IMG/VR virus record: IMGVR_UViG_3300028840_006907
Span: 352,001 to 416,000 of that record
Source of the DNA: a virus
Strand: one strand, 5' to 3'
Length of the DNA: 64,000 nucleotides
Shown: one piece after another, positions 3,912 through 24,605 of the stretch
How the letters are laid out: every line of letters begins with the position of its first letter
Numbering within the stretch: position 1 is the stretch's first letter
Made by a program: the position numbers and the translations under genes
Notes under the pieces: generated by a model
What the model saw: the letters and a program-made list of their open reading frames with translations, nothing else
Told to the model about the DNA's origin: nothing
Databases searched by the model: none

Positions 3912-3943
3912 AAAAAAGGGCGATTGGTGAGTCGCCCTTTTTT
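3912..3943 (+). terminator. Intrinsic terminator (bidirectional-looking)
   Basis: AAAAAAGGGCGA-TTGGTGAG-TCGCCCTTTTTT: 12-bp stem with 6-bp GC core, 8-nt loop, T6 tail, and an A-tract on the 5' side. Confidence 0.75.
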
Positions 3944-4008
3944 AATTTTCTTCTAATATCATAATACTCTATAGAATCAATTTAATATCTATTATAAAAG
4001 GTATAATT

Positions 4009-6234
4009 ATGTCTTACATGTTTCGATTGACTGTTGATAGTAGCAAAATAATAGGAACTGATAAAACAGATTTTCCTGTTTTATTTAATGAAAATTGTTC
4101 GAATATACCATCTTCTTTTTGGTCTAATATCACTGATGTAACAGATGGATTAGATGTTCGTTTTTATGATAGTACATCAAAATCAATTGAATATTCAAGA
4201 GAAGTTGTATCAGTTGATGCTACTGGTGAAACTATTGAATCATGGGTACAAATACCTTCTTTAAGTGTTAGTGCAGATACTGATCTTTATTGTGAAGTTG
4301 GAGGTGGTGATCGAACAAATGATACTGATATATGGACTGATTTAGGGGCACTTGGAATTTATCATATGGAAAACACTGCTAGTTCTGTTGATAATGGAAA
4401 AGATGCAACAAATAGTGATGCCACTTCCATAACTGGAAGAATAGGAAGATGTTACGATTTTGACGGTACAAGTAATTATATGGTAATGGATAATTATACC
4501 TTTTTAACTTCTAATCCTTACTATGTTTCTGCCTGGATTAATATGGATAACACTAAAGTAACTGATCCAAGTTGGGAGGATCAATTCGCTACCATATTTA
4601 ATAGATTAGAGAAGTGTAATGAATCTGTATCAGGAAGAGGATCATGCTCATTTGATTTTGGTGTTGATAGAGATGCTAAAGTAGGCTTTTTTGTTGGAGA
4701 TAATTTAACTAATGTATGTTCTAATGCAGGTTATCATCAAGATAGGTATACCACAGATAGCACTATTAATATGAATACATGGTATCATGTTGGTGTCTGG
4801 ATTGAAGATATTTCACAAACAACACCTAACCGTATTGTGAAATTTTATATAGATGGTCAATTGGTCTCTTCTACAGAGAATATTAGTGCCGCTGTTGACT
4901 ATTCGAATACTCATAGACCAGGTGAACAAACTCGAATTGGTAGTGGATATAGAATAGGGGGAGCACACTATCAAAATTTTAATGGTCGAATAGATGAATT
5001 AAGAATATTTAATGGTTCAGATTTTGATTCTAGTTGGATTGAGACAAGTTATAATACTCAAAGTGATCCAGCTTCATTTCTTTCTGGTAGTACCCTTCCA
5101 TTTCAATTTAATGTGAATGTCATATCAGATTATGTCCCTGGTTCAGATAAAACGAATTTTCCAGTAATGTTTACTCAAGATTGTAGCAATGTACCCTCCG
5201 AGTTATGGGATCATGTTTCGGATACGACAAATGGATTAGATATTAGATTTTATAGTGATTCTGGAAAGAGTGTTGAATATGATCGTGAAATTGTTCTTTA
5301 TGATCGGACTGGTCAAAAAGTAGAAGCTTATATAAAAGTACCTACATTAAATGCTTCTTCAAATACAACTTTTGTATGTGAAATAGGGGATGCTACAAAA
5401 GCTAATGATCAAATTTGGGCCGATTCTAGCGCTAGAGGTATATACCATCTTCAAAAGAGTTTAATGGATTATTCTCCAAGAGGACTGGATGGTACAAATA
5501 ATGGTTCTTTAGACTCAACAGGAAAAATAAATGACGCTTATTCATTTAATGATAGCCATGTCCAAATTTATGAGAGTACTGCTTATAATGATACTGTAGC
5601 AATAAGTGCATGGATAAATCTTAATTCTTATCCGCCAAATAATTCTTTAACAGGTTCTCCGAACTATGGCCGTGCAAGTATTTACAATACGGCAGTTATC
5701 TGTTCAACCACTTATAGAGGTTGGATTCCCATGAGTTTTAATATTACACCAACTGGTGAACTTGATTTTTGGGTTAGGACAAGTGTTAGTTGTGGTGGTG
5801 GAGCAACTACATGGGGCTATCGAACGGATAGTACACATATCAGTCTTTATAATTGGCATCATGTCATGGCTGTTATAAATAATTATACAGATGGTGCAAC
5901 AAGATCTCTGACATTTTATGTAGATGGTCAATCGGTAGCTGCTACAAAAGTTTATACTGCAGAATTTGCCCCGGTATACGCTGGTGGTATTCAAACAAGA
6001 ATTGGGTCCCAGTATAAAACTTCAGGTGTTAATGAGTGGCGAATAGATGGTATTATTGATGAATTGCGGATTCATGATGGTTGGGAGCCTCCTGATACTG
6101 ATTGGATAGAGACTGATTATAATAATCAAAATGATCCGAATACGTTTATTATTTGCGGGGATGTTCCAACTCCTCCTTCTACTTCTGTACCTGTAATGCG
6201 AAGAAGACAAAAAGTGAACAGTAGTGGTTTTTAA
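4009..6234 (+). CDS. Fibre/adhesin-like protein with two tandem DUF2341-like + LamG/ConA-like jelly-roll units
   Basis: N-terminal MFRLTVD...TDFPVLFNE...DVRFYDS...SVEYSREVV...WVQIPSL motif repeated at aa ~372 (TNFPVMFTQ...DIRFYSD...VEYDREIV). LamG-type motifs FNGRIDELRIFNG and IDGIIDELRIHDG. Confidence 0.8.
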   Translation: MSYMFRLTVDSSKIIGTDKTDFPVLFNENCSNIPSSFWSNITDVTDGLDVRFYDSTSKSIEYSREVVSVDATGETIESWVQIPSLSVSADTDLYCEVGGGDRTNDTDIWTDLGALGIYHMENTASSVDNGKDATNSDATSITGRIGRCYDFDGTSNYMVMDNYTFLTSNPYYVSAWINMDNTKVTDPSWEDQFATIFNRLEKCNESVSGRGSCSFDFGVDRDAKVGFFVGDNLTNVCSNAGYHQDRYTTDSTINMNTWYHVGVWIEDISQTTPNRIVKFYIDGQLVSSTENISAAVDYSNTHRPGEQTRIGSGYRIGGAHYQNFNGRIDELRIFNGSDFDSSWIETSYNTQSDPASFLSGSTLPFQFNVNVISDYVPGSDKTNFPVMFTQDCSNVPSELWDHVSDTTNGLDIRFYSDSGKSVEYDREIVLYDRTGQKVEAYIKVPTLNASSNTTFVCEIGDATKANDQIWADSSARGIYHLQKSLMDYSPRGLDGTNNGSLDSTGKINDAYSFNDSHVQIYESTAYNDTVAISAWINLNSYPPNNSLTGSPNYGRASIYNTAVICSTTYRGWIPMSFNITPTGELDFWVRTSVSCGGGATTWGYRTDSTHISLYNWHHVMAVINNYTDGATRSLTFYVDGQSVAATKVYTAEFAPVYAGGIQTRIGSQYKTSGVNEWRIDGIIDELRIHDGWEPPDTDWIETDYNNQNDPNTFIICGDVPTPPSTSVPVMRRRQKVNSSGF

Positions 6235-6298
6235 AAAAATTCTTCCTTTATTAATCTATTAATATTCATCCTTCTTTAATAGCCTTAATAATAAGAAA

Positions 6299-6344
6299 GG
6301 GCTGTGATTTATCAATTGTTGATAAGGTCCCTTAATCTTTTTTT
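6299..6344 (+). terminator. Putative intrinsic terminator containing a TTATCAA-TTG-TTGATAA palindrome
   Basis: Inverted repeat 6309-6325 flanked by GGG/CCC, followed by a T7 run at 6338-6344. Confidence 0.4.
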
Positions 6345-6400
6345 GTTATGGCCATGAAAAAAGAATCAAATGGCTTTTATATAATTAAGGAGCTGATACT

Positions 6401-9400
6401 ATGCCTGAAAGAGTCCTAAGAAAATTTGGTGTGGCAGCATCAGTTGATTTTACCCTATTCGAAACAGATGGAATTAACTTTAAAACTGATGCAACGCATG
6501 CCTCCGGTGACACAAAAATAAGAAAAGACACGAGTGCTGAAGTAAATACAACAAATGGATTTACAGATCAAACTACATCATATGCAATAGCATTTACCTC
6601 TGCTGAACTGTCTGCTAAGAGAATATTTGTTGGAATTGTTGATCAAGGTACAAAAACTTGGCTCGATGATTATTTAATGATTGAGACTTACGGACATCCT
6701 CAAGCAATGCACCCCTTTGATCTTGGTGCTGATTTAACTGATTATAATGAGACCTGGAAATTTAAACAAATCGATATCCAGAATGATTCAGGATCTGCAT
6801 TTAGAGCACATTCAACGGGTAGTAGTGGCCATGGTATCGATGCCTCTGGATATGATTTAGGTCACGGTATATATGCCAAAGGTGGTAATACGGATGGTGT
6901 TGGAATTTTTGCTAAAGGTGGTGAAACCGGGCATGGCTTTTATGGAGAAGGAGGTGCTGATTATGGAGATGGTATTCATGGTGAGGCTGTTGGTATCGGT
7001 ACAGGATCTCGTAAGGGTATAGTAGGTATCGGAGAAGGTGGAAACGCTGGGATTTATGCTGAAGGTGGTAGTACTGGTCATGGGTTTAGTTGTGAGGGTG
7101 GTACCGGTGGTGCTGGTATATCTTGTCTTGGAGGTACAAATGGCCATGGTTTTCTGACTTCAGGTACTGGTACTGGAGAAGGTATTTATGCTGTTGGAGA
7201 TATAGGGATTTTTGCTCAAGGTAATGGAAATCCAGGTCATGGTATGAGCCTATTTGGAGCTTCTAATGGCCATGGATTACAGATCTCTGGATCTGGTTCT
7301 AATTTTAATGGAATCAATGTAGTATCTGCAGTGGGTGTAGGTATTGAAGTAAATGCTGGTACAAATCAAAATGCTATTGAGATTTATGGTAATGGTACCG
7401 GAAACGGTGTTAATATAGTTGGTGGTGGTACATCAGGTTCAGCTATGAATCTTACTGCAACGTCTGGTTATGCTATAGATGCTTCAGGAGGTGGAACTTT
7501 TGCTGCTGTTCATCTACAAGGTGGTACAGGAAATCCTGGTTTAAAAGTTCTCGGAGATGGTACAGGTGAAGGTCTCTATGCTGAAGGAGGAGCAACAGCT
7601 AATGGCATTATTGCTAAAGCGGGTTCTACCTCTGGAACAGGTCTTGTTTGTCAATCCCCTACTGCTGGAGATGGTGTAGCAATGTATGGAAAGAGTACTG
7701 GCAAAGGTCTTAGAATTACTGCTGATCAAGAAGCAGTGGCAATTTCTGCCGGTACCGGTATTGGAATTAATGTTATAGCTGGTACTCAAGGTATCAGTTT
7801 AACGGGTCTTGCAAATGAAGGATTAAAGATATTAGGTGCAACACATGGAATTAGTACAGCATCATTTGGAACTGGACATGGCATAGATGCTTCTGGTGGT
7901 GGTGCTAATGCAGCGGTTCTTCTAACAGGTGGAACAGGTCAGGCTGGTTTGAAATTGGTAGGTACGGGCACAGTTGGGCTGGATACGGCTGAAATCGGAA
8001 CGCCTCCAGCTATCTTTGATGGTACTGCAAGTCCAAGCATATATGCGATGCTTACGGCAATGTCTGATGCAAGTGGTGGTTCTGATTTCACTGCTAGTAT
8101 CGATAGTTTAGTTGCTATTTCTAGTCAGGTTGGAGGAATGTCCACAGATGTAAATGTAGTCTCTATTGATGGTCAGGCTACAAGTGGTAACAATGCAACT
8201 CTTAATTTGAAACAATTAAATATCGTTAATAATTCAGGATCAGCCATTGTCGCTCACTCAACTGGTTCTGATGGTCATGGTTTGGATGCTTCAGGTAATA
8301 ACAATGGTAGCGGAATATATGCCTATGGTGGTAATAATAGTAGCGGAAGCGGAATATATGCTAATGGTGGCTTACAGGGAACCGGTTTCCATATAATTTC
8401 TTCAGGAGATAATGCCTTACATATTGAAACTAGCGGATCAGGTTCTAATGGAATCTATGCTAAAGGATTTGGTTCTGGGCATGGCGTGAACTTTGTTGGA
8501 GGAGCTTCATCTGGGTCAATCGGTCTCAGAGCTTCAGGTGAGACAGCGGGTATTTACGCAAGAGGAGAAAATTCTACGAGTGGTGACGGTATAAAAGCTG
8601 AATCTGTAGAACATGGGCATGGTATAAATGCCCTTGGTGGTGAAGGTGGTGCTCCTCCAAGCGGTGACGGTATTCATGCTGAAGCCCGTCATGGAGACCA
8701 TTATGGTATTTACGCGGGTGGTTTTGGCTCTGGAAGTGGCATGTATAGTAAAGGTGGTTTATGGGGTCATGGAGTTGAGTTTAGAGGTGGGGATAATTCT
8801 GGTGCAGGTTTACTTCTTGCAGTAGATGGAACCAATTCTAATGGCTTGAGTATAACGGGTTCTGATAATAGTTCAGGTGTCTATATTGAAGGTGGTACAT
8901 CAGGACATGGAGTTGAAATAATAGGAGGATCAACATCTGGAAGTGGTATCTATACACGTGCTCTAAATAACGGAATGGGTATCTATGCAATAGGTGGTAA
9001 TTCAGCAGGTGATGGTATAAATGCTCAGTCCCCGGTAGCAGGTAACGGAATTTCAGCAACTGGTTCTCTTATTACGGGTAAAGGAATAGTCAGTACGGGT
9101 GGTATAGCAATGCAACTAGTAGGATTGACTGGAAATGCGCTTGATATGACAACAACTACTGGACATGGTATTCAAATAGATGCTCATGGGTCTGGGAAGA
9201 GTGGTATGTATATACAATCTACTTCATCCTATGGTATGACCGTTGTCGGAACCACTGGAGTAAGATTCCAAGGATTATCAGGTCCAGGTATTGATGTTAA
9301 TGCTATAGGTGGTAATGGTTTAAATATCATAAGTACTGACAATGATGGAGTACATATTGAAGCTGGTGGAAGTAATCCTGGTTTCTACAGTCAAGGATCG

Positions 9401-10318
9401 GGATCACAAGCAGGTATGGAAATTCGTGGTGGTAGTTCTGATGGAAGAGGTTTGTTGGTCCAAGGTGGTGGAAATAGTGAAGGTGCTCGGATTTTAGCTG
9501 GTGGCTCTTTCGATGCCGGTCTCCATATTATGGGCGGTGGGCATGGTTTACAAATTGAAGCTCAAGCCGGTAATTATAATGGTGTTAGAATTCAAGGAAA
9601 TGGGACTGCAAGTGGCCTATATGTTGCTGCTCAATTTGCTGGTTCTGGTAGTGGTGTGGAAATCAGAGGAGCTAGCAATACTGGTGGCCATGGTGTCAAT
9701 ATAACAGGTTTTGGAGGACAAGGGTTAATTGCTACAGGTGATTTGGGTGGTATGAATATAACATGTAGTGGATCAACAGGTGACGGTTTTTATGCTGAGG
9801 GTGGAGATCATGGCCACGGAATCCATGCTGTCGGTGGTGCTGGTGCTGCTCCTCCTCCAAGTGGCCACGGTATTCTGGCTGAAGCCGTCCACGGTGATTA
9901 TAATGGTATTTGTGCCATTGGTCATGATTCCAGTGCTGGTATCGCTGCTATTGGTGGATCTACTGGTCATGGTATTGAGGCAATCGGTGGAGATACAACA
10001 GGTGATGGTATTAATGCTTATGCTCAGACAGGTGACGGCGCTGGAATGCGCTTAAGAGGAGTTGGTACAGGCCATGATCTTGATGCTACTGAAGTCCTTG
10101 GTGGTGGAGGAGGAGGTACTCTAAATGCCTTAACTCTGGATACTGTAGTTGATGGCACCACATTAGAATATGCCTTTATGTTAATGATGGCACGAGTAAA
10201 TGGTAAATATCTTGTTAATGATCCAACGGGAGGAGATATAAGATTCTTCAGACGTGATAATACGACAGAATTAACTCGGGTTCATGTGGATACCGCAGGT
10301 AGAACAAGAACATTCTAA
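6401..10318 (+). CDS. Glycine-rich beta-solenoid-like repeat protein (1305 aa)
   Basis: Dozens of ~11-aa G-x-G-(I/L)-x-A-x-G-G-x-T/S repeats, e.g. GHGIDASGYDLGHGIYAKGGNTDGVGIFAKGG; AAGGAG SD 8 nt before the ATG. Confidence 0.8.
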   Translation: MPERVLRKFGVAASVDFTLFETDGINFKTDATHASGDTKIRKDTSAEVNTTNGFTDQTTSYAIAFTSAELSAKRIFVGIVDQGTKTWLDDYLMIETYGHPQAMHPFDLGADLTDYNETWKFKQIDIQNDSGSAFRAHSTGSSGHGIDASGYDLGHGIYAKGGNTDGVGIFAKGGETGHGFYGEGGADYGDGIHGEAVGIGTGSRKGIVGIGEGGNAGIYAEGGSTGHGFSCEGGTGGAGISCLGGTNGHGFLTSGTGTGEGIYAVGDIGIFAQGNGNPGHGMSLFGASNGHGLQISGSGSNFNGINVVSAVGVGIEVNAGTNQNAIEIYGNGTGNGVNIVGGGTSGSAMNLTATSGYAIDASGGGTFAAVHLQGGTGNPGLKVLGDGTGEGLYAEGGATANGIIAKAGSTSGTGLVCQSPTAGDGVAMYGKSTGKGLRITADQEAVAISAGTGIGINVIAGTQGISLTGLANEGLKILGATHGISTASFGTGHGIDASGGGANAAVLLTGGTGQAGLKLVGTGTVGLDTAEIGTPPAIFDGTASPSIYAMLTAMSDASGGSDFTASIDSLVAISSQVGGMSTDVNVVSIDGQATSGNNATLNLKQLNIVNNSGSAIVAHSTGSDGHGLDASGNNNGSGIYAYGGNNSSGSGIYANGGLQGTGFHIISSGDNALHIETSGSGSNGIYAKGFGSGHGVNFVGGASSGSIGLRASGETAGIYARGENSTSGDGIKAESVEHGHGINALGGEGGAPPSGDGIHAEARHGDHYGIYAGGFGSGSGMYSKGGLWGHGVEFRGGDNSGAGLLLAVDGTNSNGLSITGSDNSSGVYIEGGTSGHGVEIIGGSTSGSGIYTRALNNGMGIYAIGGNSAGDGINAQSPVAGNGISATGSLITGKGIVSTGGIAMQLVGLTGNALDMTTTTGHGIQIDAHGSGKSGMYIQSTSSYGMTVVGTTGVRFQGLSGPGIDVNAIGGNGLNIISTDNDGVHIEAGGSNPGFYSQGSGSQAGMEIRGGSSDGRGLLVQGGGNSEGARILAGGSFDAGLHIMGGGHGLQIEAQAGNYNGVRIQGNGTASGLYVAAQFAGSGSGVEIRGASNTGGHGVNITGFGGQGLIATGDLGGMNITCSGSTGDGFYAEGGDHGHGIHAVGGAGAAPPPSGHGILAEAVHGDYNGICAIGHDSSAGIAAIGGSTGHGIEAIGGDTTGDGINAYAQTGDGAGMRLRGVGTGHDLDATEVLGGGGGGTLNALTLDTVVDGTTLEYAFMLMMARVNGKYLVNDPTGGDIRFFRRDNTTELTRVHVDTAGRTRTF

Positions 10319-10322
10319 AATT

Positions 10323-10357
10323 ATGGGGTAAGGAAACTTGCCCCATATAACTGTTTT
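10323..10357 (+). terminator. Intrinsic terminator (10-bp stem, GAAA tetraloop)
   Basis: ATGGGGTAAG-GAAA-CTTGCCCCAT with one G-U pair, then a T5 run at 10353-10357. Confidence 0.5.
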
Positions 10358-10382
10358 TAACAAAGGCTTATTGGATTAGCTT

Positions 10383-12431
10383 ATGGCAGCATTTATGTTC
10401 AGACTTTGTGTACCTTACACACAAGTTCCAGGTGCAAATAAAACTAATTTCCCAGTACTTTTTAATGAGAGTATATCTGCAATTCCTGCCGGATTTTGGC
10501 CTAATATTTCTGATTCTTGTGCTTTAGATGTCCGGTTTTATTCAGATCCATTAAAAACTGTTGAATATAAAAGAACGATTGAAGAATATACTCCTTCAAC
10601 TTCTATTCGGGCATGGGTACAAGTTCCTACTTTATATGGGTCTGATAGTAGCACTAATAATAATATCTTTTGTGAAGTAGGTTCTGGTACTACAGCAAGT
10701 GATAATTCTATCTGGACAGATTTAGAAGCACAAAATATTCAGCATTTTGAAGATGATGTTTTAGATGATTCAACTAATGCAAATAATGGAACTTTAGTAA
10801 ATAGCCCTACTTATACTACAGGGAAACTTGGTAGAGCTTTAGAATTTGATAAAGATTCTACTCAATATGTAGTCTTAGATAATAATATCATGTTTAATGA
10901 TGATATTGTTGCGGAAGCTTGGGTTTATTTAAATTCTTATCCAGTCCATGTCCCAAATCCTAATTTTGAATATGCCACAATTGCCTCAAGAGGTACATAT
11001 TGCGTTAATTGGTATAGGGGTAGATCTCAATTTATCTTTGCAATAGATTCAACTGGACATCCATTTTTTCAATTAAATTATTCTACAGGATGTACTGCAG
11101 GATCTCGAACTAATTCTTATACTTCAGATGCAATAGTCCCTTTATCAACATGGACTCATGTAGCGGTTGTCTCTCAAGATAATACTTCGTTTTCAAGACA
11201 AGTAGATTTTTATGTTAATGGAGAAAAAAGAACTGATGCATCAAATGTTTTAATAGCTTTGACTTTTGATACTGTTACTAATCATCAAACACAAATTGGT
11301 GCAACATTTGAAGAGTGGGGTGGAGGAGGTCCTAGCCAAAGATGGCCTTTTGATGGTCGTATTGATGAATTGAGGATATATAGACAGAATCCATTGTTAT
11401 TTGATGATGGATGGATGCAAGCCACTTATAATTCTCAAAATGATCCTGATACTTTTTTTACTTGTGGTACTACACCCTTTTATGTTTTCTCAGATAGAAT
11501 TGCACAAGATGGTTTTAATCCTCCTGCTGATTCTACTTGGTTAGCTACATTTGGTGAATGGAATATCGGGGAGGAACCTCCATATATAATTACAGATCCT
11601 CGATATTGGGTTGCTCTATCGGATTCCACATGGAATGATACCGCTAATTGGTCGTATTTTTCTGGAGGTCCAGGAGGAGCACCAGTTCCTATTTCCAATA
11701 ATACTGTTGTATTTGATAATGGTGGAATAGGTAGATGTGATATAGATACTTCGGTTGATGTAAATGGATTTTATTGTTCAGGTTATGGAAACACTATCAG
11801 TCAAAATGGTTTTCCCATTTCAGTGGATTCATGTGGGGCTCTGTTTTGGTCTGGAGTTTTTGAAGGTAGTGGAGATGATATTAGGATAGCAGGAAATCTT
11901 TATATAGGAGGAGCTGCTAATTTTACCAGTACTGACCAAACTCTTTCTTGCGACTCTACATTTACTTATTATCCTACTGCATTTTTCGAACATAATAGTG
12001 GTATTATATCTCTTGATAATAGTGGTTGTATGATCGAAGCTCCTAGTATGAGAGCATCTACTTTACAATTTAATGCGGACCAAGCCCGTGTCAGTCAGAG
12101 CATGGATGTGAACGATCTATTGGTTTTAAATAGTGGAAGTGCCCGTCATCTTGGTGTGGGTGCCTCTATTAATTTAAAAGGAGATGCATCTTGTAGATCT
12201 GGTTATAATCAGTGGAATAATTTTAATAATTTAACGATATATTTAGATGGGACAGAACAACAGCAAATTAAAAATGAAATAGGTTGTATAGTTCCAACAC
12301 TTTATGTAAATAAAAATGTCACTGAACAAGTTGTATGTGATGGTGGTAGCCCTTTGAGAGTAAAAGGGGATTTTTGGGTTCTTGATGGGACCTTTAATAT
12401 GAATGGATTAAATGTACAAGTAGGGCTTTAA
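10383..12431 (+). CDS. DUF2341-like + LamG-like fibre/adhesin protein (682 aa)
   Basis: N-terminus MAAFMFRLCV...NFPVLFNES...DVRFYSD...VEYKRTIEE...WVQVPTL paralogous to 4009 and 12801; LamG motif FDGRIDELRIYRQ. Confidence 0.8.
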   Translation: MAAFMFRLCVPYTQVPGANKTNFPVLFNESISAIPAGFWPNISDSCALDVRFYSDPLKTVEYKRTIEEYTPSTSIRAWVQVPTLYGSDSSTNNNIFCEVGSGTTASDNSIWTDLEAQNIQHFEDDVLDDSTNANNGTLVNSPTYTTGKLGRALEFDKDSTQYVVLDNNIMFNDDIVAEAWVYLNSYPVHVPNPNFEYATIASRGTYCVNWYRGRSQFIFAIDSTGHPFFQLNYSTGCTAGSRTNSYTSDAIVPLSTWTHVAVVSQDNTSFSRQVDFYVNGEKRTDASNVLIALTFDTVTNHQTQIGATFEEWGGGGPSQRWPFDGRIDELRIYRQNPLLFDDGWMQATYNSQNDPDTFFTCGTTPFYVFSDRIAQDGFNPPADSTWLATFGEWNIGEEPPYIITDPRYWVALSDSTWNDTANWSYFSGGPGGAPVPISNNTVVFDNGGIGRCDIDTSVDVNGFYCSGYGNTISQNGFPISVDSCGALFWSGVFEGSGDDIRIAGNLYIGGAANFTSTDQTLSCDSTFTYYPTAFFEHNSGIISLDNSGCMIEAPSMRASTLQFNADQARVSQSMDVNDLLVLNSGSARHLGVGASINLKGDASCRSGYNQWNNFNNLTIYLDGTEQQQIKNEIGCIVPTLYVNKNVTEQVVCDGGSPLRVKGDFWVLDGTFNMNGLNVQVGL

Positions 12432-12432
12432 T

Positions 12433-12780
12433 ATGAGTACAACATATATAAACGGTCATCTTCTTTTAGATGGGGATCTCTCTTGTGATGGTGATATCAC
12501 AGTGAGTCCTGCTGGAATTGTCAATCCAATTCCTGATCCGGATTTAATGAAAACATTCTTTTCATATCAATCTAATTCTTATATCACGGCAAATGGGAAG
12601 AGTAGAACTATGACCTCAACTACGGGAGATATTATTGTAAATGGGCTAATTGATGGGGAAGGATTTGGTTTTGAGTCTGACAGAGGTCCTGGAGCGAATA
12701 GTGCCTTAAAGGATTCTTCAGGAAATTTATTACCTGGATTCGGGGCTTCACATGCAAATCTTGGCGCTTTAAGAACATAA
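12433..12780 (+). CDS. Hypothetical Gly/Asp-rich small protein
   Basis: 115-aa ORF starting 2 nt after the previous stop. Confidence 0.5.
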   Translation: MSTTYINGHLLLDGDLSCDGDITVSPAGIVNPIPDPDLMKTFFSYQSNSYITANGKSRTMTSTTGDIIVNGLIDGEGFGFESDRGPGANSALKDSSGNLLPGFGASHANLGALRT

Positions 12781-12800
12781 CTAAAAGGTGGATCTAATCT

Positions 12801-15800
12801 ATGGCTTTTATGTTTAGACTAACAGTTGACAAGGATATGGTCGCCGGAACGGATAAGAGTAATTATCCTTTACTTGTTGATGACCGAGTAGCTAATTTTC
12901 CATCTTCATTCTTTTCGAATGTTGTTGATGCTAGTGGTTTAGATATTAGATATTATTCTGATGCAGCAAAATCAGTAGAGTATAGTAGGGAAATAGTAAC
13001 AGTTGATACTACTGCTCAAACATTTGAATCTTGGGTTCAAATACCATTATTATCTGCTTCCAGTGATTCTACTTTTTATTGTGAAGTGGGGGATGCCACA
13101 TCAGCTAATGATTTTACTATTTGGGATTCTCAAAACCATTATCGTGTATTTCATTTACAAGATGCTTCTGATTCAGGAACTTTACACGATCCTTTAATTG
13201 TAAATAATGCCTCATCTGTATCGAGTAAAATACAGAAAGGTTATGATTTCAGTGGAACCACTCATCATTTACAATGTACTACTAATCCTGATTTTCAGCA
13301 AACATACCCATTTTATATTTCTTCTTGGGTAAACTTAAGATCTCTTATAGTATCGCCTACATTTATTGATAGTGTCTCGTGTATATTTAGTCGTGAAGTA
13401 ATTTGTCAGACGACACTTAGGAATTGGATAGCTTTCAATTTTGGTATTGATAGTTCTCAAAGACTGTCTTGGATGTGTGGAGAAAATCTTTCTGGATGTG
13501 TATTGCCCGGACAACATACTGATTGGTATACTTCTGATAATACGGTTTCATTAAATCAATGGATCCATGTAGGAGCATATATTGAAAATTTATATACAGC
13601 TACTCCAAATCGTGTCGTAAAGTTATTTGTTGATGGGAGTCAGATACCTTCTACAGAAGGTAATCTTGGAGATATTGTAAATTATCACAATACACATAAT
13701 CTAGCTCAATTATCAAGGATTGGTGCTGGGTACCGGCAAACAGGTATACCAATACAAAATTTTGATGGTATTATTGATGAAGTAAGAATAGTCAGTGATG
13801 CAACTATATATTCTAATGGTGACTGGCAACAAACGGAATTTAATAATCAAAATGATCCTTCAACTTATATCTTGGCACCTGATACTACGGGGGTCTATTT
13901 TATTAATGCCGCTGGATCAAGTACTTATCCCTACGATACTGAAGCAAAAGGAGCTGTTAATTTAAAAGATTTACTTGATAGTGTTTCTCTTAATGATGGT
14001 GATATAATAGAAGTCTCTGATGCAGGTGGTACAATAGATGACTCTGCTGCTAGTCCGGGTAATATAAATGCCTCAGTAACAATTAGGTCTTATTCTGGAA
14101 ATACAGGTAATCCAACTTTTAAAGTTCGTGATAGTAGTTATTTATTTTTATTTAATGGTGTGACAGTAGATGGCGTTTATATTCAAAACATAGATATGTA
14201 TAAAGCCGGAACTGGTTCTACCTCTATCGCTTTCATTTGGTTTTTAACTTGTGATATATCAAATTTTGAAGTAACTAATTGTAACTTCTCAATAACCGGA
14301 ACTGCTGGCTCGGTAGCTGCTGTGGAATTAGACACTTCTGATCTTCATGGAACTTCCAGGTTTGAATATAATACAATAACTAAGATGAGTGCTGGACTAT
14401 ATATCAGAGACAATTGTTCTGTCTTTGAAGATTTTAGTGCTTCTTATAATACGTATAATGATATTAGTTATGGTAGTATTAAAGCTTTTCTTCTTGTCGG
14501 AACTCTAAGTACTATACAAAGAATTGTTGTTGATAATAATTATGGTACTGATAGTGGACTAACTTTTGTCTTTATGGCAGGTACTGCAGGTCAAACCTGT
14601 GATGACATTAAAATAAGAAATAATGTTATTAACTCAATGGATTCATTTCATTTTAATACCATAAATTTAGCTGCTCCTACTTTGACGAATTCAAGTGTTG
14701 TTAATAATTCATTATTTCAAGCTGGGGGTATATTTGTAAATAATGCTGATGCTAATCTAGTTGTAGCTAATAATACTCTAAGTCGAGGCTCGGAATCTTG
14801 GTTCATTTATGCTATTCAAGTTACTGCTGCAGCAGGAGCTTCTTTCAATAACAATAATATTTATGGTTATACAAACCCATATTTTGTAAGTGGTGGCATT
14901 ACATATGGTACAAGTAATACACAATTGGATCCTCTTTATGATAGCACTTCTAATCTCCATCTCCAAGCTGGAAGTCCTTGTATAAAAACCGGTGCAAGTT
15001 ACGGAGTCTATTCTTCAGTACCTACAACAGGTTATGATGGTACTGCCCGACAGAGTCTTGTCTGTGATATTGGTGCTTATGAAACTACTCCTAATACTTA
15101 TTTTGTAAATAATGGTGGATCTGCTACATATCCTTTTGATACTGAAATAAAAGGTGCTGTTAATTTCAATCAATTACTTGGTGTTATAACTTTATCAAAT
15201 TGGGATACAGTTGAAGTAAGTAATGCTGGTGGTACAATTGATGATTCGACTGCTTTTCCTAATTTTATTAATGCTGCGGTAACAATTAGATCATATGCTA
15301 ATAATACAGCCAAACCTGTTATTCATGTAAAGAATACTGGAGCTTCAAGAGAGAGCCAGTTTCGTTGGGACAACTATCCTACTGTTTATTCATCAGATGC
15401 TGTAACAATACAAAATTTACAATTATATAAATCAGGTCCAAGTCCAAGTCAGCCCTTTATAAACGCCCGAACATGGGATTTCGATACTTTAGAAGTTACT
15501 GGATGTGATTTTTCAGTGACTGATCCAACTGGTGCTGTAAGTGCTGTACAAGGAGTTTATCTTGATGATTGTAATATCAATCAGAGTTTTACTTATCAGG
15601 ATAGTGACTCTTCCGGTGTAGACGGTGCCCTTTGGATTACTGATACTACTACTAAAACTATACAGGGTGTAAATATATCAGATCATATTTTTGAAGGGAA
15701 ATATTTATTTGTTTATATACAACCCGATACTCTTTCTGATGCTACTATTGAAACTAATGATGTAGGAGGATCAATTTTATGTGCTGGAACTTCTATAAAT

Positions 15801-18800
15801 AGTAGTGTAGCTATTAGGAATAATGTCGTTCGAAGTGTTTCAAGTTTGGCACCTTTAGGAATTTATACCACTGGAGCTGGTCAGAGTGTTGTAAATAATA
15901 CGATCAGAAATATCCCAGTTGGTGGTTATGGTATAAGATATCTTAGTGGTGGTGCAAATAGTTATGTTCTCAATAATATCGTTTATAGAGATGATACTGT
16001 GGGAGCTGCCACTGGAATCGAAACTTCATTTACAGCCGGTGTCATTGATTATAACAATGTTTATAATTTTGGCACACCTTATGTTTCTGGAGCAGTCACT
16101 CCAGGACCAAATAGTATTCAAGTTGATCCAATTTTTATTAGTTCTACAAATCTCCGTTTACAAAGTAATAGTCCTTGTATAAGAACTGGTATAGGTAGTG
16201 GGACTTATTCTGTAGTTCCATCGGTTGGATATGATGGTAATCCAAGATCTTCTGCTACTGTTGATATGGGAGCTTATGAATCTCTTTTACCCTCTGGACT
16301 TTTTCCTCCTCCCCTACCTATTTACGGTAATTATGAAACACCTGTTTCCTTAGGAAGTGGATCAGGTTATTACCACAAGCCTGCTGATTATTTAGGGCAG
16401 GAAACTAAAGGTGGTGGAGCTATTAAATTAGTGGCAAATTCAGGTAATGTTAGTATTAATGGTAGAATCAGAATGGATGGTCAGGATGGGACTATGACCG
16501 GGGGTGCCGCTGGAGGAAGTGTCTGGCTTATTGGTTGGAGAATAGATGGGACTGGAACAATAAGCGCAGATGGTGGAAGGACTCAATTGGTAAGTAATTC
16601 CGGTGGTGGAAGTGGTGGCTATATTTCAATGTGGCATCATAAAACTATAACTTATGATGGAACTGCAACTGTTGATGGTTATGATGGTGCCGGAGATGGA
16701 AAGATATTTATAAAAGAAATTGAGCCCATTTTAGAAGAGCCTTTTACAGGTGATATTTTAAATATAAAATGGTGGGATACTACGAATTCTGTAACCATAG
16801 ATAATGAACTCACTTTTGATTCACCAAATGATAATTATAATTTCCCGGAGACTTTATCGGAATTTAATATTTCAGGAAAAGAAATAAATGTTGAAGCAGA
16901 TTATACTTCACTCACTCCAGACTCATCTCAGAATACGGCAGCATTTCTATTGTGGGTCGATGATTTAAATTGGGCAGGAGTGGCACGGAAATTTAATGGC
17001 TTTTTTGGAATATCCTCTATAAATGGGGCTGTCTCTGTTTCAGGAGTGCCTTTTGATAATACGAATGTAACTTTCCGTATTCTTAAAAATGATAGTACTT
17101 TTACATATCAATTTTGGGATGCCACATCAACTCCTCAAACTATTTATATGGATTATCTGCCAGAATTGGCAAATAGTGTATTTAAAGTGAAGTTAACAGT
17201 TGATAAACCTCCACTGGGTGATTCACTACGTACAAGATATCAAAGATTAACTGCATTTGATATTTCAAATCAATATCTTTATATGGATGGGATTCCTATA
17301 GATCAATCAGCCGTTGCTATGAATTCTATTACTGGTACATCTCATTACTATGGAGAAGATTTTTATGTAGATAATTATCTTTTGAAATGGGATTATACAG
17401 CTTCTAATTTTGCTTCCCTTGCAGCGTGGGGTGATGTTGTCAGATATCAATATGAATATAATGCTCCGCCAACAAATGAGGTTACTGTAGCTTTCGATAA
17501 TGTAAGAGTATATGAAGGAGTTTTAAGTAATGCAGAAACAACTGAACCGGTTATCTATGTTGATCCTAATTATGGCTCAGATACCTGTTCTGGAAGACAG
17601 CTTGATCCTTTGAAAAATTTATTTGTAGCCACGGCTTGGGCTAAAAAAGGAAGTACAGTTGTATTGTATGATGGAACTCATAATCCTACTAAAGTATCCC
17701 GCAAAGACCTGACCATACGAGGAGCTGAAGGAAGTATTGCTGGAATTACTTCGAAAAATGTCCAGGATTCAACAGGTTCTAATTGGGAAAGAGATGCTCT
17801 TTCATTTTATGGCAGTCAAGGTATCGTAGAAAATGTGCATATTTTTGATAGTAGTAGAGGTATTGTAGTTGAGAATGGTAATTATGAAATATCTCGAAAC
17901 ACAATTACAGATACAAGTAATGCTGTAACCTTCGTCAAATGTGATCCTAGAATTATCCGAAATAAAATTTTGGATGTAGATTTTGGTCTTGATTTTACAT
18001 CTTGTCGAATTGCTCCTTATGCTTATGCTAATATTATATCAAATGCAGATGTAGCAGTTCGAGCTAATTTAACAACTGATATGACTTTTTCATGTAATAC
18101 TTTTGACAATGATCAGACCCATTTCTTGATTGATTCAAGTTCATCAATTATTATGTCGTCAAATAATTTGACATATAGTGTTATGCCAGTCATTGTTTCA
18201 ACAGATTCATGGTTTGGTTCTTATTATAATAACTTTTATCCTAATACGACACAATATAATAGGACCCCAGATGATGCTACTAACAATATTGTTGCAAATC
18301 CTTTATACTATGACCGAATTGGAAAGGATTTCCATTTAAATACTGGATCTCCTAATATAGGAACAGGGTCACTTACATATAATGATTATCTCTATGATTT
18401 TGATGGGGCTGATATTCGTAGTGCTGAAATAGGAGCATACCAATATATTGACAGTACTAAAATAACAAGTGACTATTATGTATCAAGTCATGGTAATGAT
18501 TATTGGAATTTCGGAAGACAGACTGACCCATTCCGGACTTTAGATAGAGCTATGGTAGATGCTGATTCTACTGTCCGTATTGATGGTGGTCATTATGATT
18601 CATTCTATCTTAATCTGAGATCACAGGATATACATTTAAATCAACTCTATATTTATTTAGGACCGGAACAACAATTTGTCTCATATATCACTTTAGATGC
18701 AGAAGATGCTTCAAATAAATATGTTCCTTTGCCAAGTTTTGTTGCACCAGATGATGCTTCCCATGTAGCTATGAATATCATAGGAAGTTCGGCACAAATT

Positions 18801-20126
18801 CAGGGAGAGGATTACATAGTAGAATGGGGTCATCTTGTATGGGATACTTATGATCTTGATGGTTTCCTTTCAGCGGGAGATACTTTAAGAGTAATTTTCT
18901 ACGGTCCTTTACAAAAGAAAGCATTAAATAATTTTGTTCTTCATGGGCATTATAGTAACTATAACCAGAATCAGGCAATTTTTGTATCACCGAGTGGAAG
19001 TGATAGCACTGATCTGGGAGGGGACGGGACCAATACAGGTGGAACTGGATCAAGAGATTTACCATACAGAACTATTAGTATGGCTCTGTCTCAATCAAAT
19101 TCGGGTGATAACATTGTAGCTATGGCTGGAGAGTATCCAGTATTTGATGGCCTTCAGGATCGGGTAATCGTTCCTGCCTTTGACCGGACCGCTGCAGTCA
19201 ATAGTTCAAAAAGGGTTTATGAGGATTTCTTTGCACAAAAAGATTTTAGAGCTTATGGTACAACTGAATATGATCCAACACCATGGGAATTTGATTATAC
19301 AGGAAATTCAGAAGTATTCGCAGGAGGAGGATTCTTAAACTTTACCTATGACGGATCGAACAGTGCTACAGCCACATCGACTTTTCAATTTACCAGTGAT
19401 TTTGAAGTAAGGGCTAATTTAAGAAATGCTGTGGATCCAATAACTCTTAGAGTAACTTCACCTGATACAACAGCCTTTATTAGTTATAACGAATCACAGT
19501 TTACTGCTGGTGTTATAAATACTGATAGTACAGTTATATGTAGTGCTGTGGCACATAGTGGTGATACTACTGAATCAGATGTTTTTGTTGTAGAATATAT
19601 TCCTGTAACATCGGATCATACTCGAAATAAATATGCCGAATTATCATATATTCCAGAGGGATCTGATTGTACCAATTTAGCTCTTAATGTTGTTGGGGGT
19701 AATACGCAGGATTTCGGTGAAGATTTCTATGTCCAAGATTCTAAAATTAAATGGGATGGTATGACAATGGATGGTGAAATAGAACCAGGTGAAGTTTTAA
19801 GAGCTGTTTACTTGGATCGACCTTTATCATTGGCTGTTACTGCTTCCATCACTCTTGAGAATGGTCTCTTTACTCTAAAGGCTTATGATGGTACTTGGAA
19901 TACTTTAATGAATAGAAGTTTGGTAGGAGATTATACCGGTAACTGGAATGTATCATTTACAATGGATACACCTAACGAAGAATTTAGTCATAATTGCATT
20001 TATGGTAAAGGATATGCGTCTCAATTCTTGGCAATAGCTGATTCTTTTGAGAATATTCAAGGTTTAGATAAGCCTTTGGCTGTCTCAACTGAGAGACGTA
20101 ATTTAGTTATATATGAAGAGAGGTAA
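12801..20126 (+). CDS. Giant fibre protein (2441 aa): DUF2341/LamG-like N-terminus plus three right-handed beta-helix-type modules
   Basis: N-terminus MAFMFRLTVD...NYPLLVDD...DIRYYSD...VEYSREIV; LamG motif FDGIIDEVRIVSD. Three modules end in the cap motif L(H/R)L..(G/N)SP.I..G..........D..G..R......(D/E)(I/M)GAY(E/Q), the first two being a large internal duplication. Confidence 0.8.
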   Translation: MAFMFRLTVDKDMVAGTDKSNYPLLVDDRVANFPSSFFSNVVDASGLDIRYYSDAAKSVEYSREIVTVDTTAQTFESWVQIPLLSASSDSTFYCEVGDATSANDFTIWDSQNHYRVFHLQDASDSGTLHDPLIVNNASSVSSKIQKGYDFSGTTHHLQCTTNPDFQQTYPFYISSWVNLRSLIVSPTFIDSVSCIFSREVICQTTLRNWIAFNFGIDSSQRLSWMCGENLSGCVLPGQHTDWYTSDNTVSLNQWIHVGAYIENLYTATPNRVVKLFVDGSQIPSTEGNLGDIVNYHNTHNLAQLSRIGAGYRQTGIPIQNFDGIIDEVRIVSDATIYSNGDWQQTEFNNQNDPSTYILAPDTTGVYFINAAGSSTYPYDTEAKGAVNLKDLLDSVSLNDGDIIEVSDAGGTIDDSAASPGNINASVTIRSYSGNTGNPTFKVRDSSYLFLFNGVTVDGVYIQNIDMYKAGTGSTSIAFIWFLTCDISNFEVTNCNFSITGTAGSVAAVELDTSDLHGTSRFEYNTITKMSAGLYIRDNCSVFEDFSASYNTYNDISYGSIKAFLLVGTLSTIQRIVVDNNYGTDSGLTFVFMAGTAGQTCDDIKIRNNVINSMDSFHFNTINLAAPTLTNSSVVNNSLFQAGGIFVNNADANLVVANNTLSRGSESWFIYAIQVTAAAGASFNNNNIYGYTNPYFVSGGITYGTSNTQLDPLYDSTSNLHLQAGSPCIKTGASYGVYSSVPTTGYDGTARQSLVCDIGAYETTPNTYFVNNGGSATYPFDTEIKGAVNFNQLLGVITLSNWDTVEVSNAGGTIDDSTAFPNFINAAVTIRSYANNTAKPVIHVKNTGASRESQFRWDNYPTVYSSDAVTIQNLQLYKSGPSPSQPFINARTWDFDTLEVTGCDFSVTDPTGAVSAVQGVYLDDCNINQSFTYQDSDSSGVDGALWITDTTTKTIQGVNISDHIFEGKYLFVYIQPDTLSDATIETNDVGGSILCAGTSINSSVAIRNNVVRSVSSLAPLGIYTTGAGQSVVNNTIRNIPVGGYGIRYLSGGANSYVLNNIVYRDDTVGAATGIETSFTAGVIDYNNVYNFGTPYVSGAVTPGPNSIQVDPIFISSTNLRLQSNSPCIRTGIGSGTYSVVPSVGYDGNPRSSATVDMGAYESLLPSGLFPPPLPIYGNYETPVSLGSGSGYYHKPADYLGQETKGGGAIKLVANSGNVSINGRIRMDGQDGTMTGGAAGGSVWLIGWRIDGTGTISADGGRTQLVSNSGGGSGGYISMWHHKTITYDGTATVDGYDGAGDGKIFIKEIEPILEEPFTGDILNIKWWDTTNSVTIDNELTFDSPNDNYNFPETLSEFNISGKEINVEADYTSLTPDSSQNTAAFLLWVDDLNWAGVARKFNGFFGISSINGAVSVSGVPFDNTNVTFRILKNDSTFTYQFWDATSTPQTIYMDYLPELANSVFKVKLTVDKPPLGDSLRTRYQRLTAFDISNQYLYMDGIPIDQSAVAMNSITGTSHYYGEDFYVDNYLLKWDYTASNFASLAAWGDVVRYQYEYNAPPTNEVTVAFDNVRVYEGVLSNAETTEPVIYVDPNYGSDTCSGRQLDPLKNLFVATAWAKKGSTVVLYDGTHNPTKVSRKDLTIRGAEGSIAGITSKNVQDSTGSNWERDALSFYGSQGIVENVHIFDSSRGIVVENGNYEISRNTITDTSNAVTFVKCDPRIIRNKILDVDFGLDFTSCRIAPYAYANIISNADVAVRANLTTDMTFSCNTFDNDQTHFLIDSSSSIIMSSNNLTYSVMPVIVSTDSWFGSYYNNFYPNTTQYNRTPDDATNNIVANPLYYDRIGKDFHLNTGSPNIGTGSLTYNDYLYDFDGADIRSAEIGAYQYIDSTKITSDYYVSSHGNDYWNFGRQTDPFRTLDRAMVDADSTVRIDGGHYDSFYLNLRSQDIHLNQLYIYLGPEQQFVSYITLDAEDASNKYVPLPSFVAPDDASHVAMNIIGSSAQIQGEDYIVEWGHLVWDTYDLDGFLSAGDTLRVIFYGPLQKKALNNFVLHGHYSNYNQNQAIFVSPSGSDSTDLGGDGTNTGGTGSRDLPYRTISMALSQSNSGDNIVAMAGEYPVFDGLQDRVIVPAFDRTAAVNSSKRVYEDFFAQKDFRAYGTTEYDPTPWEFDYTGNSEVFAGGGFLNFTYDGSNSATATSTFQFTSDFEVRANLRNAVDPITLRVTSPDTTAFISYNESQFTAGVINTDSTVICSAVAHSGDTTESDVFVVEYIPVTSDHTRNKYAELSYIPEGSDCTNLALNVVGGNTQDFGEDFYVQDSKIKWDGMTMDGEIEPGEVLRAVYLDRPLSLAVTASITLENGLFTLKAYDGTWNTLMNRSLVGDYTGNWNVSFTMDTPNEEFSHNCIYGKGYASQFLAIADSFENIQGLDKPLAVSTERRNLVIYEER

Positions 20127-20128
20127 TA

Positions 20129-21496
20129 GTGCCAGTATATCATTCAGGAAATTTAAGAGATACTGATAGGCCAGAATGGAATTATCCATTAAGACCTCAG
20201 GTTGCAGATTTAACAAAGCCTTTGGCTCCCCGAAATCTTATGGTAACAAGTCCTTATGATGTTGGAAAATTGGATATTCGTTGGGATAATCCTAATATTC
20301 TTCCACAAAATAGTGGATTAAATATTGTAGGATGTAATGTATACCGTTCTATTGATAGTCCTTTCAGATTTGTAAAAATTAATGAGACACCCGTTACCGT
20401 ACTTTTTTATCGTGATGAGACAAAAGAAACTTTGGTAACAAATGAAAATGCTACTCCTACAATACGTCATGATTTAGTTCCAGAAGAGAAATGGTCTGTA
20501 TGGGCTCAAAGAAGACCTATAGTAAGACCTGATTCAAATGGTGTTACAACTGATAGAGTTCAAGATATTTTACTTGAAATAGATAATGGTGATGGTACAT
20601 TTCTTGAAGTACCAGCTTTTTCTGTAAATGGAAAAACAGGTGAAATTGTACTTATAAGAACTCCTGTTTATAATTACGAAGTTAGCCAAATAGTTCCTCC
20701 ACGTTTACCATATCCACCTAATGGTCGCGTCAGAATTACATATAGATATTTAGAACATTCGGTAATTACTGTATTAAATCAAAGAATTTATTATAAAGTG
20801 ACAACAGTAGCAGTAGATCCGGATGATCCTGCTTCTTTTATTGAAACTCCGTTGGATGAGGTTTCATCACGTACTGCTTTTGATGTAGAATCGATTGATT
20901 ATATTTGGAGAGAAGGAATTTTACGTAATCGTTGGTTATTAGAGCAGAGCGGTGAAAGAGTGAAGATATTTATACGTAGATGGATGGGAGAAAAGTGTCC
21001 ATCTCATCAGACAAATTATGGACAAAGCTATAATGATTGTACTGATTGTTATGGTACTAATATTGTAGGTGGGTATGATGGTCCTTATGATGTGATAATA
21101 GCACCACCAGAGTCAGAGAAGATGATAGAATTAGCGGACATGGGACTTCATATTACTTACGATTGGGCAACTTGGATGGGTCCCTATCCGCTTCTAAATG
21201 AACGTGATGTTATTGTTCGTCAGAATAATGAGCGTTATGTTGTAGGTCCTGTGACTCCTCAGGGATCACGAGGATGTATTTATCAGCATCATTTTACTAT
21301 GAGCTATATTGACCAAGGAGATATTAGATATCAGATACCGATTGAAGGTGGGGAAACTAGTGTGCCTTCTTCATATGATCCTTATCGTGAAACTGCTCCG
21401 ACTGATGCAAGTCCAGCAATAAACGATAAGCCTGAAATTCCTGATGACAAGATCATTAGAGGCCGTACAGTAACCTTCGAAAATATTACCTATTAA
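20129..21496 (+). CDS. Hypothetical protein (455 aa), possible fibre-associated
   Basis: GTG start 3 nt after the stop of the 2441-aa gene with AGAGG upstream; no recognisable motifs. Confidence 0.6.
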   Translation: MPVYHSGNLRDTDRPEWNYPLRPQVADLTKPLAPRNLMVTSPYDVGKLDIRWDNPNILPQNSGLNIVGCNVYRSIDSPFRFVKINETPVTVLFYRDETKETLVTNENATPTIRHDLVPEEKWSVWAQRRPIVRPDSNGVTTDRVQDILLEIDNGDGTFLEVPAFSVNGKTGEIVLIRTPVYNYEVSQIVPPRLPYPPNGRVRITYRYLEHSVITVLNQRIYYKVTTVAVDPDDPASFIETPLDEVSSRTAFDVESIDYIWREGILRNRWLLEQSGERVKIFIRRWMGEKCPSHQTNYGQSYNDCTDCYGTNIVGGYDGPYDVIIAPPESEKMIELADMGLHITYDWATWMGPYPLLNERDVIVRQNNERYVVGPVTPQGSRGCIYQHHFTMSYIDQGDIRYQIPIEGGETSVPSSYDPYRETAPTDASPAINDKPEIPDDKIIRGRTVTFENITY

Positions 21497-23116: not shown

Positions 23117-23126
23117 AGAGAATCAT

Positions 23127-24269: not shown

Positions 24270-24320
24270 TTTAGCTAGATTTTCTCTTACATACAGTTTT
24301 TAAAAAGATGGTCTTCTAAT

Positions 24321-24350
24321 GGAGGGAGTGGTTGCCCTCCATTTTTCTTT
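24321..24350 (+). terminator. Intrinsic terminator
   Basis: GGAGGG-AGTGGTTG-CCCTCC stem-loop followed by ATTTTTCTTTC. Confidence 0.55.
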
Positions 24351-24605
24351 CTTATAGTGGTTTTTCACTTCTTCATTGTAGTATTTATTTGTATTCCATT
24401 TAGAAATTAGTTATAATTATATATACTTCTCCCCGTCCTTTTACGGGGCTGTCTCACACACACAGATTCTCAAGTACGGAAAATGATTAAATACCCTCGG
24501 CTCTTTCCGGGGATTCAGGGAAAGATTCACAATTTTTCCCTTTTCTTTTACCTCCTCCAATTTGATAATGTATTAATATTTCCCTGACTATATATAGGAG
24601 TATAT

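Follow-up and report, generated by a model that had tools for sequence, protein, structure and literature searches.

We analysed a 64,000-nucleotide stretch of viral DNA (hereafter the window; positions 352,001 to 416,000 of IMG/VR record IMGVR_UViG_3300028840_006907) and found that three of its genes, g1 (4009..6234), g3 (10383..12431) and g5 (12801..20126), all on the + strand, carry four copies of one protein module. The module is ~360 amino acids (aa) long and consists of a ~110-aa DUF2341 beta-sandwich followed by a ~230-aa Laminin_G_3 (LamG) jelly-roll. We hold, at roughly even confidence, that it is a displayed lectin-like adhesion or spacer unit of virion surface proteins, which would be anchored by other parts of the same chains. 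An earlier interpretation of the letters alone (the sequence-only reading) had suggested a virion-docking unit. The exact 741-aa g1 product was found with the same neighbours on metagenomic contigs of 388,651 and 469,021 bp, so the window belongs to the genome of an uncultured megaphage of roughly 470 kb, a contractile-tailed myophage.

To define the module, a hidden Markov model (HMM) was built from the four copies (aligned segments: g1 aa 1-371 and 372-741, g3 aa 1-374, g5 aa 1-370) and run against all six-frame open reading frames (ORFs) of at least 60 aa in the window. Exactly four full-length matches were obtained, at aa 1-372 and ~367-728 of g1, aa 3-373 of g3 and aa 1-370 of g5. Pairwise BLASTP among the copies gave E values of 7e-42 to 1e-85 at 32-40% identity, confirming the earlier count of four copies in three genes. 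In the alignment the copies were homologous across ~360 aa, with 37-40% identity to copy 1 and 53 invariant columns. The homologous unit is thus the whole two-domain module rather than the ~100-aa N-terminal unit first described; the first ~110 aa are better conserved (42-54% identity in the DUF2341 half versus 27-35% in the LamG half), which explains why the shorter unit was noted. On the DNA, copy 1 occupies 4009..5121 (DUF2341 roughly 4009-4340, LamG roughly 4360-5080, by alignment and structural model), copy 2 5095..6192 (the C-terminal half of g1; HMM match to aa 388-749 of the stop-to-stop ORF), copy 3 10383-11504 and copy 4 12801-13910, all on the + strand. The motifs quoted in the sequence-only reading were approximately right, but copy 2 lacks the literal MFRL and WVQ and has FQFNVNV and YIKVP.

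Domain families were assigned at Pfam gathering scores (27.6 bits for Laminin_G_3, PF13385; 23.4 bits for DUF2341, PF10102). The Laminin_G_3 profile was above its score in all four copies, with 81.3 bits for g1 (two stretches, E 1e-22), 57.3 bits for g3 and 45.4 bits for the g5 module; copy 2 on its own scored 40.7 bits (E 3e-10). The DUF2341 profile passed only for the protein starting at 4009 (27.3 bits for whole g1, 15.3 bits for copy 2 alone), and copies 3 and 4 gave no direct DUF2341 match at E<=1. All four copies align from the first strand with two bacterial proteins, P0004 (28.1 bits) and P0005 (57.7 bits), that both pass the DUF2341 cut-off. Since the copies are also mutually homologous, their DUF2341 membership follows by transitive homology and not by direct score, and in this form the proposed DUF2341-LamG identity is supported. 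No match for the module was found in PHROGs, in NCBIfam or among Protein Data Bank (PDB) chain sequences. Neither tblastn of the module (E<=1e-5) nor megablast of 4009-20126 found a match in 50,697 GenBank phage records.

We modelled copy 1 with AlphaFold2 (AF2). The whole module reached a predicted local distance difference test (pLDDT) score of 72 and a predicted template modelling (TM) score (pTM) of 0.80, with a pLDDT of 84 for the DUF2341 part. The closest solved structures to the LamG half were carbohydrate-binding and lectin-like domains, namely domain 4 of AbnA, CBM40, the lectin-like domain of trypanosomal sialidase, clostridial toxin Hc-N, the PilC lectin module and pentraxins. The DUF2341 half is a generic beta-sandwich. 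When the model was compared with predicted viral structures, many LamG 'virion structural' or ConA-like phage proteins matched, and two of the predicted structures covered both domains of the module at TM scores of 0.66-0.68.

A profile search with the module returned 26,820 representative proteins at E<=1e-3, 907 of them at E<=1e-30. Matches mostly spanned the full unit, often in many tandem copies, and lay at any position in the protein. The highest total scores belonged to Kiritimatiellia 'DUF2341 domain-containing proteins' of 4,700-7,300 aa with 20-29 matched stretches (29 in a protein of 7264 aa). Kiritimatiellia were considered as the host and rejected, because these scores are sums over 20-29 repeats and identity to the module is only ~25% per unit. 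A scan of species genomes likewise gave only matches of 23-36% identity, in many phyla. DUF2341 has been described as an appendage of non-flagellar MotA-like proteins (PMC12505986) and in large archaeal proteins associated with type IV pili, which were proposed to be tip adhesins (PMC4858521); the literature assigns it no function in any system.

Phage-type relatives of the module were 33-59% identical per half-module or unit, compared with only ~25% to cellular copies. They begin at the initiator Met with the first DUF2341 strand (MYRFxITIDKTKV) and contain 1, 2, 3, 4 or 7 units. In unit-only proteins of this type (g1, P0001, P0008, P0011, P0023, P0028, P0037 and P0040) the units are followed by a ~10-aa linker and then a short tail, which may be an attachment peptide. 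Most of these tails are hydrophobic (VWIPGII, IMWMSGV, VTVLMIL), and those of g1 (6187-6231) and P0001 are basic (RRRxKxNxSGF). In some units of P0008, P0011 and P0023 an extra ~200-aa LamG-like domain is nested right after the first DUF2341 strand (YRFPxxID ... NFPYLF). The bacterial proteins P0004 and P0005 have N-terminal leader regions, whereas the phage copies start directly with the domain and have no signal peptide; in P0004 the unit is N-terminal and a type IX secretion system (T9SS) sorting domain is C-terminal.

Copy number was found to vary even between close relatives. The 378-aa protein P0001 is a one-module ortholog of g1 with the same tail, and the closely related contig L014 carries a terminator, a one-unit gene of 378 aa with a g1-type tail and then a glycine-rich gene, as around g1. 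The number of units at this locus therefore differs between related phages. Between the window phage and L014 the module is 46% identical, compared with 80% for the first 150 aa of the neighbouring glycine-rich protein g2. Close relatives were limited to the short contigs L014, L015 and L016; a metagenome scan for related phages gave one 2.5-kb contig, and IMG/VR searched with the module and the conserved N-terminus of g2 yielded only distant matches or none.

Other phage contigs place module proteins beside tail genes. P0002, which like P0055 and P0109 (all ~605 aa) has one unit followed by a DUF2612 domain, lies in the sheath-initiator/baseplate block of a 48-kb contig, and the single-unit P0003 has PKD, collagen and BNR genes around it in a 464-kb contig. 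P0023 adjoins a collagen-like tail-fibre gene, and just downstream of P0023 is a gene that matches a PHROG baseplate protein. P0011 is flanked by two collagen-like tail-fibre genes.

Beyond the module the three proteins differ, as had been proposed. The 741-aa g1 product consists of two tandem modules (aa 1-~365 and ~367-728) and otherwise has only a 13-15-aa C-terminal tail (VMRRRQKVNSSGF). In g3 (682 aa) copy 3 is followed by a C-terminal region of ~300 aa for which no family match was found; g3 had no PHROG or NCBIfam match. In g5 (2441 aa) copy 4 is followed by a long chain of domains, the beta-helix chain. Self-comparison of g5 revealed two tandem paralogous beta-helix-type regions, at aa 362-762 (13884-15086) and aa 763-1161 (15087-16283), which are 40-49% identical and both end in a choice-of-anchor-Q motif. 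This motif is typical of right-handed beta-helix surface proteins. Its profile (NF041518) scored 31.1 bits against a cut-off of 25 at aa ~709-762, and 19.6 bits, below the cut-off, at aa ~1117-1161. A ~70-aa domain occurs three times further along (17220-17444, 18678-18899 and 19578-19811), and a DUF1565-type beta-helix cap (PF07602) was found at ~19038-19145 (28.1 bits against a cut-off of 20.3, E 1.6e-6), all on the + strand. The part of g5 beyond its module had no match among PDB chain sequences, and no protein of the cluster matched a PHROG. Only g5 can be called giant, in place of the multiple giant fibre proteins of the sequence-only reading.

The cluster abuts a conserved tail-region gene, g6 (20129..21496, + strand, 455 aa). 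No match to g6 was found in PHROG, NCBIfam or PDB chain sequences. Its homologs are gp322 of Tunturi_5 (a 309-kb Tunturiibacter phage), annotated 'minor tail protein', a gene of LR745208 (a 485-kb uncultured phage) and gp175 of phage G, and in all three they lie a few genes upstream of the sheath. In Tunturi_5 the homolog is located between the head-tail connector and the tail terminator and is preceded by an unrelated 1362-aa protein. Tunturi_5 and LR745208 lack the module, so we regard g1-g5 as a lineage-specific accessory insert beside g6. The window itself encodes sheath, tape-measure-like and baseplate proteins. Together with the 'minor tail protein' homolog of g6 and the relatives among tail-fibre and baseplate genes, this bears out a phage and probably a virion context.

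We weighed two roles for the module, display and docking. A displayed module fits better because copy 2 is the C-terminal half of a module-only protein, because copy number varies across orthologs and phage relatives, and because the unit is a repeat element of giant cellular surface proteins. It also fits better because the anchors that can be recognised lie C-terminal to the unit (DUF2612; T9SS in P0004), because the LamG half has the fold of glycan-binding modules, and because the conservation at the N-terminus is that of the first domain strand, with no separate adaptor peptide.

We propose the following mechanism. The g1, g3 and g5 products would be paralogous surface proteins, each opening with a self-contained extracellular DUF2341-LamG unit, which appears to be a general building block common to giant cellular surface proteins and to large phages, where one to seven copies are seen. 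Within this genome it may have spread by old gene duplication and tandem duplication (32-40% identity between copies) and then been joined to different passengers: a second module in g1, an uncharacterised ~300-aa domain in g3, and pectate-lyase-type beta-helices with small beta domains in g5. The LamG half would bind glycans of the host surface and so provide reversible adhesion and avidity, and the better-conserved DUF2341 half could serve as a rigid spacer or scaffold. We expect the proteins to be fastened to the particle through the short conserved C-terminal tail in module-only proteins, through the C-terminal regions in g3 and g5, and through the DUF2612 wedge in the ~605-aa relatives. 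The beta-helix domains of g5 might add polysaccharide binding or degradation.

A number of points weigh against a displayed module. In this phage, as in most of the phage relatives examined, the unit occupies the very N-terminus, the usual anchor site of tail fibres and tailspikes. The DUF2341 half is the better conserved, which is also compatible with a conserved contact between proteins. The invariant residues of the module look like core residues, and no ligand site could be identified from them. The C-terminal parts of g3 and g5 yielded no recognisable anchoring domain. None of the three detectable relatives (Tunturi_5, LR745208 and phage G) has the module cluster, and synteny therefore says little about its role. 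Finally, although the homology, domain families, folds, copy-number variation and genomic contexts are established, we infer that g1, g3 and g5 are incorporated into the virion, and likewise infer glycan binding and the polarity of attachment.

In the docking alternative, the N-terminal unit or its DUF2341 half would be a common adaptor at equivalent sites of the virion, and the C-terminal parts would be interchangeable distal effectors. We consider this somewhat unlikely. Anchor domains usually show up as shared N-termini with divergent C-termini, as in the CBA120/Vi01-like and K1-5/SP6-like phages, and the present proteins show this pattern in that the unit of g1, g3 and g5, and that of most phage relatives examined, begins at residue 1-5, the downstream parts are mutually unrelated and the DUF2341 half is more conserved than the LamG half. 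However, when the module was examined as an N-terminal anchor domain, it was not confined to the N-terminus: copy 2 is C-terminal, with no distal part in its protein, phage relatives have 2-7 units within an overall range of 1-7, and cellular proteins have up to 29. Neither in sequence nor in fold did it resemble a characterised anchor or a PHROG tail-fibre family. Where the unit is fused to the baseplate-wedge domain DUF2612, the latter should itself be the anchor. The extreme N-terminus is the first strand of the domain, as it is in bacterial proteins that bear a signal peptide. Orthologs of the module diverge faster than the neighbouring N-terminal domain of g2, and an identity of only 32-40% between paralogs is low for competitors at one site. 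For these reasons, and given the LamG fold, the docking role suggested by the sequence-only reading is disfavoured.

A different location was also considered, in which the proteins would be monomeric beads-on-a-string fibres on the capsid or collar (Hoc- or whisker-like) that adhere weakly and multivalently to a polysaccharide matrix and do not act in baseplate receptor binding. The cluster does lie outside the baseplate block (38-61 kb) and upstream of g6, whose Tunturi_5 homolog is found between connector and terminator. In addition, the domain types are monomeric in cellular tandem arrays, and g5 has serial beta-helices on one chain, unlike the classic trimeric tailspike with one per chain. 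Set against this, module proteins of other phages are found among baseplate and tail-fibre genes, the position of a gene in a mosaic genome of ~470 kb is weak evidence, and no match to a capsid-binding domain was found. We regard a head or neck location as quite improbable.

Least probable, and in our view very unlikely, is that g1, g3 and g5 are captured genes for bacterial cell-surface-type adhesins or enzymes that are expressed in infection, for instance in remodelling the envelope or matrix of the host, and stay out of the particle: the unit is typical of surface proteins of bacteria, as are the choice-of-anchor-Q motif and DUF1565, PHROG matches are lacking, the cluster is missing from related phages and DUF2341 proteins have been counted among cell-derived genes in viral genomes (PMC11003980), but the phage copies start directly with the domain where bacterial P0004 and P0005 have leaders, they resemble one another more than they resemble cellular copies, four other phage contigs show tail-fibre or baseplate neighbourhoods, and g5 abuts g6.

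Returning to the displayed module, we can tentatively extend it to a bolder proposal, which we think unlikely as it stands. DUF2341-LamG units might form, in very large phages, a class of fibres not described so far: monomeric 'beads-on-a-string' of variable copy number, fastened by a short conserved C-terminal peptide or a C-terminal wedge domain, in which the number of units and the LamG loops would tune reach and glycan specificity. With C-terminal fastening, the polarity of such fibres would be opposite to that of canonical trimeric tail fibres.

Lectin-type LamG domains on the fibres of large phages are already known, and paralogous fibre-like proteins that share one end are commonplace. 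What is new is the DUF2341-LamG pair as a repeat unit of megaphage proteins, together with the short conserved C-terminal tails; no description of the pair as a megaphage repeat unit was found in the searchable literature. If the displayed module is correct, it would point to candidate host-recognition proteins in uncultured megaphages, where receptor-binding proteins cannot otherwise be recognised, given that the cluster has no PHROG match and the module no GenBank phage match. It would also provide a first testable functional context for the large DUF2341 family. Annotators should not simply assume that an N-terminus shared by fibre-like phage proteins is the virion anchor.

We next describe the genes between the module genes and the transcription of the cluster. 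The 1305-aa glycine-rich repeat protein g2 (6401..10318, + strand) falls inside the range originally assigned to the shared unit, but it carries no copy of the module. Its sequence is made up of degenerate GHG(I/F)xAxGG-type repeats, and the local guanine-cytosine (GC) content of 0.40-0.44 and GC skew of ~0.3 are well above those of the rest of the window. The N-terminal ~150 aa of g2 are 77-80% identical in the related contigs L014 and L016, and the repeats diverge. There was no Pfam, PHROG or NCBIfam match to g2, and a search of PDB chains gave a chance-level match only. The second intervening gene, g4 (12433..12780, + strand), encodes a glycine-rich protein of 115 aa with no family match, PHROGs and NCBIfam included. 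The same ORF is called in all three assemblies of this phage (JGI, ENA and Logan), and its product might be a separate subunit or a chaperone in relation to g3. We considered whether g3 and g4 could be one frameshifted gene and treated them as separate, as both ORFs are called in these three independent assemblies.

Terminator-like structures were found at three places on the + strand. An intrinsic-terminator-like hairpin with a U-run (3917..3952; -21.6 kcal/mol, z -6.5) lies upstream of g1 and ends the preceding transcription unit; contig L014 has a hairpin at the equivalent position. After g1 there is a weak terminator-like structure, an imperfect hairpin followed by U7 (6296..6345; -14.2 kcal/mol, z -2.7), and after g2 a stable hairpin whose U-run is displaced by ~8 nt (10322..10347; -18.1 kcal/mol, z -4.8). 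No terminator-like hairpin was found after g3, after g4 (12780) or after g5 (20126), and the genes are spaced by 1 nt (g3/g4), 20 nt (g4/g5) and 2 nt (g5/g6). Thus 10383 through 21496 (g3-g6) looks like one operon. The sequence-only reading had terminators after the first three units, which would make them independently expressed cassettes; this holds only in part, and at most for g1 and g2, since g3-g6 look co-transcribed. Nor did a shared promoter motif emerge upstream of the cluster genes: TTCTNTTAATAT was not enriched (13 matches versus 7 +/- 3 expected), and no 9-mer was informatively shared among the intergenic regions.

In the remainder of the window every long ORF is on the + strand, and the GC content is ~0.35. 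The sheath gene (28157-30958) encodes 933 aa with ~35% identity to the sheaths of Tunturi_5 and LR745208, the gene at 26233-27579 is a tail-terminator homolog, a tape-measure-like protein is encoded at 34727-38035 (+ strand), and baseplate and fibre candidates follow at 39652-61520 (+ strand). The sheath has a segment of ~80-130 aa in common with the 26233-27579 protein (30-37% identity) and with the 1358-aa protein of 57444-61520 (43%), which is probably a shared surface insertion domain. Between g6 and the tail-terminator and sheath genes, 21614-23804 carries inserted genes for a ThyX-type thymidylate synthase (Pfam Thy1, E 1e-58) and a phrog_1574 protein with a weak glycosyltransferase-like match; the flanking genes are closer together in Tunturi_5 and LR745208. 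An intergenic region of 336 nt (24270-24605) contains a terminator-like hairpin (GGAGGGAGTGGTTGCCCTCCATTTTT) and more GC-rich inverted repeats, and had no match in Rfam at gathering thresholds. Scanning the window for Rfam families and for tRNAs found nothing. The 338-aa protein of 25217-26233 (+ strand) matches Pfam Volactin (actin fold) over its full length (E 1e-63). A homolog with 46% identity occupies the same place in LR745208, between the g6 and tail-terminator homologs, and the gene looks like a conserved actin-like gene within the tail-gene region of megaphages.

Comparison with known systems placed the module closest to several different groups. Bacterial and archaeal DUF2341 + Laminin_G_3 proteins match the module along its entire ~360 aa, with both domains in the same order, hold it in tandem arrays as the phage proteins do, and in bacteria have a YRKxITI strand with which the phage first strand YMFRLTVD aligns. 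The phage copies differ in the absence of a signal peptide or sorting domain, in their ~25% identity and in being joined to DUF2612, short C-terminal tails or beta-helix chains. In a survey of jumbo phages, tail fibres and other components of the virion were described as carrying Laminin G3 lectin domains (Iyer et al. 2021, PMC7824862). Such LamG fibre and virion proteins of jumbo phages and cyanophages, of which the 'virion structural protein' of Synechococcus phage S-PM2 is an example in BFVD, resemble the present ones in the LamG fold, in a presumed adhesion role and in the presence of several lectin-domain proteins per large phage. Here, however, LamG is always preceded by the DUF2341 sandwich, and the pair is one repeat unit.

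For the LamG half, the closest folds are found in the sialic-acid-binding CBM40 of sialidase, domain 4 of Geobacillus AbnA, the Hc-N domain of clostridial neurotoxin and Streptococcus sanguinis PilC (Foldseek E 4e-9 to 1e-6, probability 1.0). Identity to these carbohydrate-binding modules is 10-17%, a similarity at the level of the fold only, and no ligand-binding residues are transferable. DUF2612 proteins are putative baseplate-wedge components, the studied example being GP075 of Pseudomonas phage K8 (PMC9887876). The occurrence of DUF2612 C-terminal to the module in P0002, P0055 and P0109 ties the module family to baseplates, though no DUF2612 match was found in g1, g3, g5 or the cluster neighbours.

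The last comparison is with tailspike and fibre families of the anchor type. In CBA120/Vi01-like tailspike proteins and in K1-5/SP6-like phages, a shared N-terminal anchor is combined with swapped C-terminal receptor-binding or depolymerase domains. Unlike these anchors, the module is of lectin type, is also found internally, C-terminally and in arrays, and has no similarity to known anchors; g5 moreover has several beta-helices in series per chain. What the two have in common is that one phage encodes several proteins with a homologous N-terminus and unrelated, beta-helix-containing C-terminal parts.

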